DNA from: Eledone cirrhosa
Lineage: Eukaryota
Direction: 5' to 3'
DNA: 64,000 bases
Assembly: GCA_964016885.1 (NCBI GenBank)
Contig: OZ024743.1
Coordinates: forward strand, 164,548,001-164,612,000
Both the position numbers and the translations under genes were made by a program. Under the pieces are notes generated by a model that was not told where the DNA came from, ran no database searches, and worked only from the letters and a program-made list of their open reading frames with translations. This document shows positions 14,701 through 15,922 of this stretch, piece by piece (the first letter of the stretch is position 1; each line of letters starts with the position of its first letter).

Positions 14701-14891
14701 AATGTAGAGGCGAGAGTGGATGGTTTTAATTGTTTTGGTGTGTTGTTAATTTGTTTGTTTGTTAATGGCAGCAATGGGAGTTTGTGCAGTGGGGTGATAG
14801 TGGAGGGTGGTGCTGGGTGATAGCTCGAATGTTTTTTTCCAGTTCTTTTGCCAGATTCATTATGGCTAAAAAAGAGGAAGAAGTTTCCTGT
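11754..14891 (-). CDS. CR1-like ORF2: APE endonuclease + reverse transcriptase
   Basis: [69 protein letters not shown]-terminus typical of CR1. Frame is open from just after a TAA at 14894-14892; no AUG before the endonuclease. Confidence 0.92.
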
Positions 14892-15922
14892 TTAGAAGAC
14901 TGTTGGTGACTGTGGTAGTGGTTATTTTTATGTAGGTTATGGTTTTTGTTTTTGCTTTTATTTTTAATTTTATTTTCATTTATCCGACGGGTCCCCGGGA
15001 GATGGGTAAAGGGACAATCCCGGTCTAAACACAATCTGTCTCGCAGGGAAAAACGGCAGATTTGTGGATTCCTTGTTTGAGTTATTGGTGGTTGTGTTGG
15101 TGTTAAATTAGAGTATGTATTATGGTGGTGGCTGTTTGTGGGGATAGATCGTTTTGTCCTAGGTAAATGGGTGAATTTGCAGCCACTATCCGTACATATT
15201 CTATAGCGTAGAGAGTAGCGGCAAATGATGGGGTTTCGAGTGGGTGGGTATATGGGTGTGGGTGTTGTGAGAGGTGTAGATGATGGTTTGGGTAGGATTT
15301 GACGACCTTTGTGGACTGTGGGAGGGAGAGTTCTTGTTCTGGTATTAGAAGGTAAATTCCTTGACATAGCAGTAGACAAAAATGTTGTAGTAGTAGTAGT
15401 AGTAGTAGGCAGAGATGTTGGCAGTGGTGATGATTGGACTGCTGGGCCAGAGAAAGGATGTGGCGTTTCATGCTGTGAGACAGAGGCTACTGGGGGGTCA
15501 ATAGTTTCATTTAGTAGATCGGCCATTGTTGATGAATCAAGGAGTGGTTCACACTGTTGTTGTTGCTGTTGTTGATGTTGTTGTTGTAGCTGTTGTTGAT
15601 GTTGTTGTTGTAGCTGTTGTTGTTGTTGCTGTTGTAGCTGCTGTTGTTGTTGTTGCTGCTGCTGGACAGCATTCGAAGAGAAAACACACCGTAGTTTATC
15701 CAAATGTTTATTGATTAATTTAAAAGCAATTTCGATTTGCTTTAATTTATTTTGAATCTGTTGTTCAGATCGAGTTTTCAAAAATTGAACTGTACGTTTA
15801 GCAATGTCGTTCAGAGATGAAGCATCTATATTTTCTGTTTGGGAAAGGCAATGCCATGTGTTTATTAGAATGTCGATTTCATTATCAGACCAGTTCTGTT
15901 TGGATTTTTGCTGGTTAGCCAT
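14762..15922 (-). CDS. LINE ORF1: Myb/SANT-like N-terminus, polyQ, Pro/Thr linker, two CCCH zinc fingers
   Basis: 386 aa from ATG; WSDNEIDILINTW...RSEQQIQNKLKQI; CRYSLRYRICTDSGCKFTH and CRFSLRDRLCLDRDCPFTH. Confidence 0.82.
   Translation of the reverse strand: MANQQKSKQNWSDNEIDILINTWHCLSQTENIDASSLNDIAKRTVQFLKTRSEQQIQNKLKQIEIAFKLINKHLDKLRCVFSSNAVQQQQQQQQQLQQQQQQQLQQQHQQQLQQQHQQQQQQQCEPLLDSSTMADLLNETIDPPVASVSQHETPHPFSGPAVQSSPLPTSLPTTTTTTTTFLSTAMSRNLPSNTRTRTLPPTVHKGRQILPKPSSTPLTTPTPIYPPTRNPIICRYSLRYRICTDSGCKFTHLPRTKRSIPTNSHHHNTYSNLTPTQPPITQTRNPQICRFSLRDRLCLDRDCPFTHLPGTRRINENKIKNKSKNKNHNLHKNNHYHSHQQSSKQETSSSFLAIMNLAKELEKNIRAITQHHPPLSPHCTNSHCCH

Follow-up and report, generated by a model that had tools for sequence, protein, structure and literature searches.

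How LINE retrotransposons translate their second open reading frame is an open question, and the worked cases, human L1 and SART1, are both described as using reinitiation (PMC2881922, PMC3708506). The question arises in the window, the stretch of 64,000 nucleotides of Eledone cirrhosa DNA analysed here, where a LINE copy carries its endonuclease and reverse transcriptase in a frame that overlaps the preceding ORF and reaches its first conserved motifs before any AUG.

The element is a full-length copy of a very young family, lying on the minus strand at 11666..16870 (ends approximate) with TA/TATG microsatellite on either side, and its 3' end consists of short TTCAAAGTTA repeats without poly(A). 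Its ORF1 (14762..15922, minus strand; 386 aa) runs from an ATG at 15922 to a TAA at 14764-14762. ORF1 carries a poly-Gln tract and two C-x8-C-x4-C-x3-H motifs (starting at 15223 and 15058), and its C-terminus consists of a Phe-Leu, an amphipathic-looking stretch and a final Cys-Cys-His-stop. Pfam returned a weak Myb/SANT-like match at the ORF1 N-terminus (E 0.002, below the cut-off) and no PHD match. The ORF2 frame (11754..14891, minus strand; 1045 codons) encodes an APE endonuclease and a reverse transcriptase (Pfam PF14529, PF03372 and PF00078), and no protease domain was found in the element by Pfam. A match of the endonuclease to that of L1, together with the presence of 5'-truncated dispersed copies, identifies the element as an APE-type non-LTR retrotransposon.

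Some variable features accompany this arrangement. The poly-Gln tract of ORF1 differs in length between young copies. In the 5' region, a ~200 bp block at 15950-16380 is duplicated, each copy with a donor-like GTGAGT, and a 51-bp tandem array (16394..16752, minus strand) lies upstream of it. The window copy and many 5'-truncated copies adjoin TA repeats, which suggests a microsatellite target preference.

As stated in the preliminary description of this locus, the first AUG in the ORF2 frame lies inside the endonuclease, after the LLNAQG and LTETH motifs; it is codon 148 (14448..14450, minus strand). In an endonuclease-family profile, these two motifs align with the ILTLNING strand and the QETHL motif of the human L1 endonuclease, and the first strand of the domain (FLLN, 14691..14702, minus strand) is located 5' of every in-frame AUG. 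Since a product begun at 14450 would be without both motifs, the ORF2 frame must be entered earlier, and we rejected initiation at this AUG because the motifs precede it.

The geometry of the junction was likewise confirmed. ORF2 is in the -1 frame relative to ORF1 and is open for 1045 codons from directly after a TAA at 14894-14892 to 11754, overlapping ORF1 by 130 nt (14762..14891, minus strand); in the overlap, the -1 frame would encode a low-complexity linker to the endonuclease. The TAA (14892..14894, minus strand) is the last stop of the -1 frame, and six codons further on lies a slippery heptamer, U_UUU_UUA (14867..14873, minus strand), which encodes Phe351-Leu352 of ORF1 and from which the -1 frame remains open. 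A second heptamer, A_AAA_AAC (14831..14837, minus strand; Glu-Lys-Asn), had been reported alongside it, and both are present and in phase, while four heptamer matches in upstream ORF1 and an AAAAAAA at 14838-14832 are out of phase. Directly after the first heptamer, with a 0-nt spacer, a GCCA..UGGC hairpin of 4 bp can form (14850..14866, minus strand). When the overlap in the window alone was resampled synonymously, the probability of one or more strict in-phase heptamers was 0.47 and that of two was 0.008; a single heptamer in the window is thus unremarkable, and conservation has to carry the case.

Within the genome, the exact 32-nt junction occurs at 599 places, and at most 6 of these copies have an extra T that would fuse both ORFs. 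On these counts a private indel in the window copy was rejected, and neither an upstream AUG nor a single fused ORF, either of which the preliminary description had named as counting against frameshifting, is the form of the family. Because two-frame copies vastly outnumber fused ones, the two-frame form is the one that amplifies. All 40 scored DNA matches are identical or near-identical across the junction, and the 150 scored protein matches from the same genome are all identical, every one belonging to the young family. Among the first 30 copies on one contig (C1), which were chosen by endonuclease motif, 24 have the junction; the heptamer is intact in 21 of these 24, has lost one T in two and is altered in one.

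The genome also contains four older lineages (B, C, D and E, assigned by motif rules without a tree), which retain the -1 arrangement and the ORF1 end, with xFL, the helix-like stretch and Cys-Cys-His-stop. Lineages B and C are ~65-79% identical to the window's family over the aligned pieces. The modal distances from the helix to the endonuclease (161, 167, 134 and 152 nt) differ by whole numbers of codons, and the modal distance is found in 19/25 copies of lineage A, 6/23 of B, 23/29 of C and 1/3 of D. The T6A sequence is intact in 18/23 copies of lineage B, 22/29 of C and 2/3 of D, and the decayed copies of lineage E have an intact heptamer at 3 of 7 loci (2/5 in the T6A tally). Across lineages, the codon before the heptamer varies between TCT, CCT and GCT, the T always being retained, and the upstream stop in the -1 frame is a TAA or a TGA (TGA in lineage C). 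Lineage E has TG or TA after the run, and both the AG and the hairpin are lost at 7/7 loci. None of 20 older loci has a 5' region that matches that of the window copy.

Three lineage C loci (L073, L082 and L084) have short deletions that remove the U-run. These deletions lie within a more extended hairpin, predicted to form between the U-run and an A/G-rich stretch after the TGGC; its counterpart in the window does not exceed shuffles in stability (z -0.6).

We examined the same junction in 17 metagenome loci with endonuclease identities of 35-50%, which had been picked through a peptide pattern in the endonuclease without regard to the junction; one (L172) was excluded from the junction counts since its contig ends within the overlap, leaving 16. 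ORF2 is in the -1 frame to a long upstream ORF in all 16 relatives, with overlaps of 202-325 nt, and in 16 of 17 loci a stop interrupts the -1 frame 0-16 codons before the site. Every one of the 16 has a heptamer at the homologous xFL, which in the relatives is the start of a conserved helix-like stretch: U_UUU_UUA in seven, G_GAU_UUU in seven and G_UUU_UUA in two. The strict X_XXY_YYZ rule fits just 7/16 of them, and the rule was broadened post hoc to GGA and GUU first triplets. G_UUU_UUA is regarded as a working slippery site. The switch to G_GAU_UUU is a single event on a quick tree, which was used only for grouping loci. No AUG precedes the first endonuclease strand in 13 of the 16, the exceptions being L183, L184 and L185, and many relatives have a Met a few residues past the conserved Asn. 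What the conservation check set out in the preliminary description had called for thus recurs in older lineages and distant relatives alike: a U-rich heptamer, a -1-frame stop ahead of it and the absence of an AUG.

The two heptamers proposed as shift sites fared differently in this comparison. U_UUU_UUA is conserved and is the likely shift site, whereas A_AAA_AAC is kept in just 3/29 copies of lineage C and occurs in the overlap of none of the 16 distant relatives; it is a secondary site at most. The GCCA..UGGC hairpin, which does exist after the first heptamer as described, has no spacer, is lost in lineage E, is not conserved in the distant relatives and is unlikely to be a stimulator.

Further observations on the relatives concern their surroundings. 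In L184 and L185, the overlap has a further heptamer in phase, G_GGU_UUA, 60 nt past the first. Two contigs (L185:2-3016 and L186:3-2753) have very long ORF1 frames (1004 and 916 codons), which are still open where the contig ends and which give PHD-like matches. No relatives were present among 38 viral-contig and 6 genome-contig candidates, and a cluster look-up of 10 proteins returned one name and no clade label. One endonuclease relative (P0011) is annotated in the ctenophore Pleurobrachia bachei, so the clade extends far across animals.

Codon usage at the site departs from the background. Phe is encoded by TTT in 17 of 17 loci, against a background of 18-62%. Leu is encoded by TTA in each of the 10 loci whose site depends on that codon (background 2-13%), and by CTN in all seven whose site lies one codon upstream (G_GAU_UUU). 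Further upstream in ORF1, only 7 of 5,891 codons have a slippery heptamer in phase, with near-duplicate loci counted. Across 11 groups, fourfold sites are near saturation, with identities of 14-50%, mostly 20-42%. When amino acids were held fixed and codons resampled in the 10 groups other than the window, the chances multiplied to 4e-14 in the case of the site and to 5e-14 in that of the open -1 frame; the site chance is 1.5e-4 when three well-supported clades count once each, each represented by its least favourable member. Judged by these resampling and saturation tests, the heptamer is conserved beyond the needs of the encoded protein. The Phe-Leu may in addition be retained for the function of the ORF1 protein, for which the codon test allows.

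A typical -1 frameshift signal includes an RNA structure 5-9 nt downstream, as summarised in PMC7618472. Of the components of such a signal, the heptamer, the open -1 ORF without a start and conservation are present at this junction, and no downstream structure was found by folding. The 60-100 nt downstream of the heptamer in the window fold no better than shuffles (z -0.8 to +0.2), and the same holds for 14 loci folded at 60, 80 and 100 nt (z -1.5 to +1.5), in models that include neither pseudoknots nor protein stimulators. The search for a stimulator by folding, suggested in the preliminary description, therefore found none in the window or in these 14 loci.

We consider it likely, at a probability of about 0.8, that ORF2 is produced as an ORF1-ORF2 fusion through a -1 ribosomal frameshift at U_UUU_UUA (14873-14867), as had been proposed for this copy and as the comparative tests support. 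The slip, its rate and its product, which we infer from the sequences, would take the following form. A small share of ribosomes would slip one base back at the heptamer, with tRNA-Phe and tRNA-Leu re-pairing one base back, to yield a fusion of 352 ORF1 residues and 1037 ORF2-frame residues (1389 aa) that would retain both CCCH-type motifs and drop the ORF1 C-terminal tail; the majority would read through and make the 386-aa ORF1 protein. Since no downstream RNA stimulator was found, a low-level shift is predicted. Such a rate would suit a LINE, which needs much ORF1 protein and little ORF2 protein. The shift would be driven by the slippery site itself or by a signal invisible to folding programs. 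In HIV-1, shifting at U_UUU_UUA is reported to rise when the tRNA reading UUA is scarce (PMC6547452), and UUA is rare in the ORFs studied here (2-13% of Leu codons); slow decoding of a rare UUA is a possible driver that would not cover the G_GAU_UUU group. No protease domain was found by Pfam, so the fusion would not obviously be cleaved.

Other routes into ORF2 have to be weighed against this frameshift. One, which we regard as unlikely, is reinitiation without an AUG close to the end of ORF1, for example at a CUG in the ORF2 frame 7 nt before the ORF1 stop (14769..14771, minus strand); it would yield ORF2 as a separate protein and leave the heptamer as a by-product of a conserved Phe-Leu. 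Reinitiation is the mechanism reported for L1 and SART1 (PMC2881922, PMC10275272), and the window offers a UUG at -10 in addition to the CUG at -7, both kept within the Cys-Cys-His end of the genomic lineages; the lack of a frameshift stimulator in our searches and the upstream AUG in 3 of 16 relatives also fit. The CUG is, however, missing at that place in the distant relatives, around whose ORF1 stops start-like codons occupy no shared position and, in 7/16, are missing altogether from -25 to +29 nt. Stop-start coupling of the SART1 type finds no ORF2-frame AUG at -25 to +29 nt of the ORF1 stop in 17 of 17 loci. Reinitiation would leave unexplained why 60-96 codons of the -1 frame stay open before the stop, and why TTT is used at 17/17 and TTA at 10/10 loci against their backgrounds.

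The U-run could instead serve as the polypyrimidine tract in front of a splice acceptor (..CTTCCTCTTTTTTAG/C at 14866), with ORF2 translated from a spliced RNA, which we hold to be very improbable. In the window, all 15 nt before the TAG are pyrimidines, a branch-like CTAAAC lies ~25 nt upstream and the 5' region contains donor-like GTGAGT and GTAAGC; a TAG also directly follows the run in 4/16 relatives and, in the same phase, comes 9 nt later in three more. Yet an AG follows the run in 0/7 lineage E loci, and the first AG is in another phase in 9/16 relatives, being AAG or GAG in seven of those nine. A base other than T three bases before the putative exon occurs in only two genome copies, both of them point variants and neither a spliced copy, in a test that is blind to exons ending in TNN. 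Splicing would moreover not demand the -1 frame that is seen in 16/16 relatives. Slippage of RNA polymerase, adding a U at the U6 run such that a minority of RNAs are fused in frame, would be consistent with the T7A found in six genome copies and with two sampled copies (L119 and L129) in which a single inserted base in the T or A run gives a read-through fusion. We nevertheless place this explanation at the far end of what is credible, as G_GAT_TTT in 7/16 relatives has just four T, one-base losses occur too (2/24), as ordinary homopolymer slippage gives, and fused copies have not been amplified.

Frameshifting at the heptamer has close parallels outside LINEs. U_UUU_UUA is the HIV-1 site and G_GAU_UUU that of pea enation mosaic virus, according to PMC5009743. 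In HIV-1 gag-pol, as described in PMC6547452 and PMC5009743, the same heptamer lies at a Phe-Leu, and a structural ORF precedes an enzyme ORF in the -1 frame; HIV-1, however, has a downstream stem-loop, for which we found no equivalent in the LINE, and the LINE is a non-LTR element without a protease domain. Pea enation mosaic virus shares its heptamer with 7/16 relatives (PMC5009743) and differs in having a stop 3 nt downstream, where ORF1 of the LINE relatives continues for 82-90 codons.

Among LINEs, the idea of a -1 frameshift is not new. The preliminary description had set well-studied LINEs apart as using reinitiation or coupling, and this stands for L1 and SART1, but a review states that ORF2 of TRE5-A and TRE3-A of Dictyostelium discoideum, which are also APE-type non-LTR elements, needs a -1 frameshift (PMC5911963). 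Compared by description, these amoebal elements differ in targeting tRNA genes and in having an oligo(A) tail and an ORF2 zinc finger. For Paramecium LINEs, +1 shifting or reinitiation has been suggested, and for HeT-A a frameshift within gag has been noted. SART1, with UAAUG coupling, and human L1, with unconventional reinitiation, resemble the present element in having a bicistronic RNA whose ORF2 depends on ORF1 translation (PMC2881922, PMC3708506); unlike in the window's clade, which has no such AUG and overlaps of 130-325 nt, their AUG lies at or after the ORF1 stop and separate proteins are made. In the literature on LINE frameshifting, as far as titles and abstract openings go (few subscription journals, and neither Repbase reports nor supplements), no conserved slippery site in CR1-group LINEs is mentioned.

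Membership of the CR1 group is plausible from motif likeness, the 3' repeats and the PHD in relatives, with Proto2 or another clade as the alternative. The reverse transcriptase and C-terminal motifs of the window LINE resemble those of CR1, the ORF1 types described for CR1 and L2 include PHD, RRM, esterase and CCHC forms, and short 3' tandem repeats replacing poly(A) are a mark of CR1 and L2 elements. With these the element also shares two ORFs and the combination of APE and RT. A PHD finger is described as common in CR1 and L2 ORF1s (PMC4120745). Among nine ORF1s of relatives, one has a PHD match above the cut-off and four have one below it, whereas the ORF1 of the window has none.

For the clade as a whole, we lean towards the view that a deep group of LINEs makes its reverse transcriptase as a Gag-Pol-like fusion, through a conserved, structure-free -1 shift in which virus-type sites (U_UUU_UUA, G_GAU_UUU and G_UUU_UUA) have been swapped at a single Phe-Leu. 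If so, a strongly conserved -1 shift would operate without the usual RNA stimulator, and the natural site variants would form a set for finding a non-structural one. Fusion would keep the enzyme attached to its own ORF1 particle, the active enzyme would bear ORF1 domains, and a third route to ORF2 would stand beside L1-type and SART1-type reinitiation. The ORF2 starts of such elements would also be mis-annotated, as gene callers place them within the endonuclease. This alternative is testable: the clade offers a seven-base site in three natural versions, the junction peptide can be predicted, and the young copies number in the hundreds and are nearly identical.

Among the joints and loose ends listed for contigs of four runs (kind unrecorded) on 14000-15540, none falls at 14865-14866. 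One run (X1, kind unrecorded) has a summed contig depth of ~11,000 at 14780-15090, compared with 70-400 in the flanks, and another (X4) has no peak there; the X1 peak could stem from a reduced-representation library, from an abundant short RNA or from a different repeat.

The window also contains other elements. On the plus strand, 53198-55654 is an open frame of 818 codons without a Pfam match; it has a YRDDG motif, its C-terminal part resembles a GIY-YIG nuclease, and it has the look of a Penelope-like element. Another LINE family has a single long ORF with an endonuclease, an RT and a PHD-like Cys motif after the RT (59097-62255 on the minus strand; 3-2568, 62195-64000 and 18030-19436 on the plus strand); we assume it to be RTE-like, and it is represented in the window by several copies that are 98-99% identical and by one older copy at 88%.
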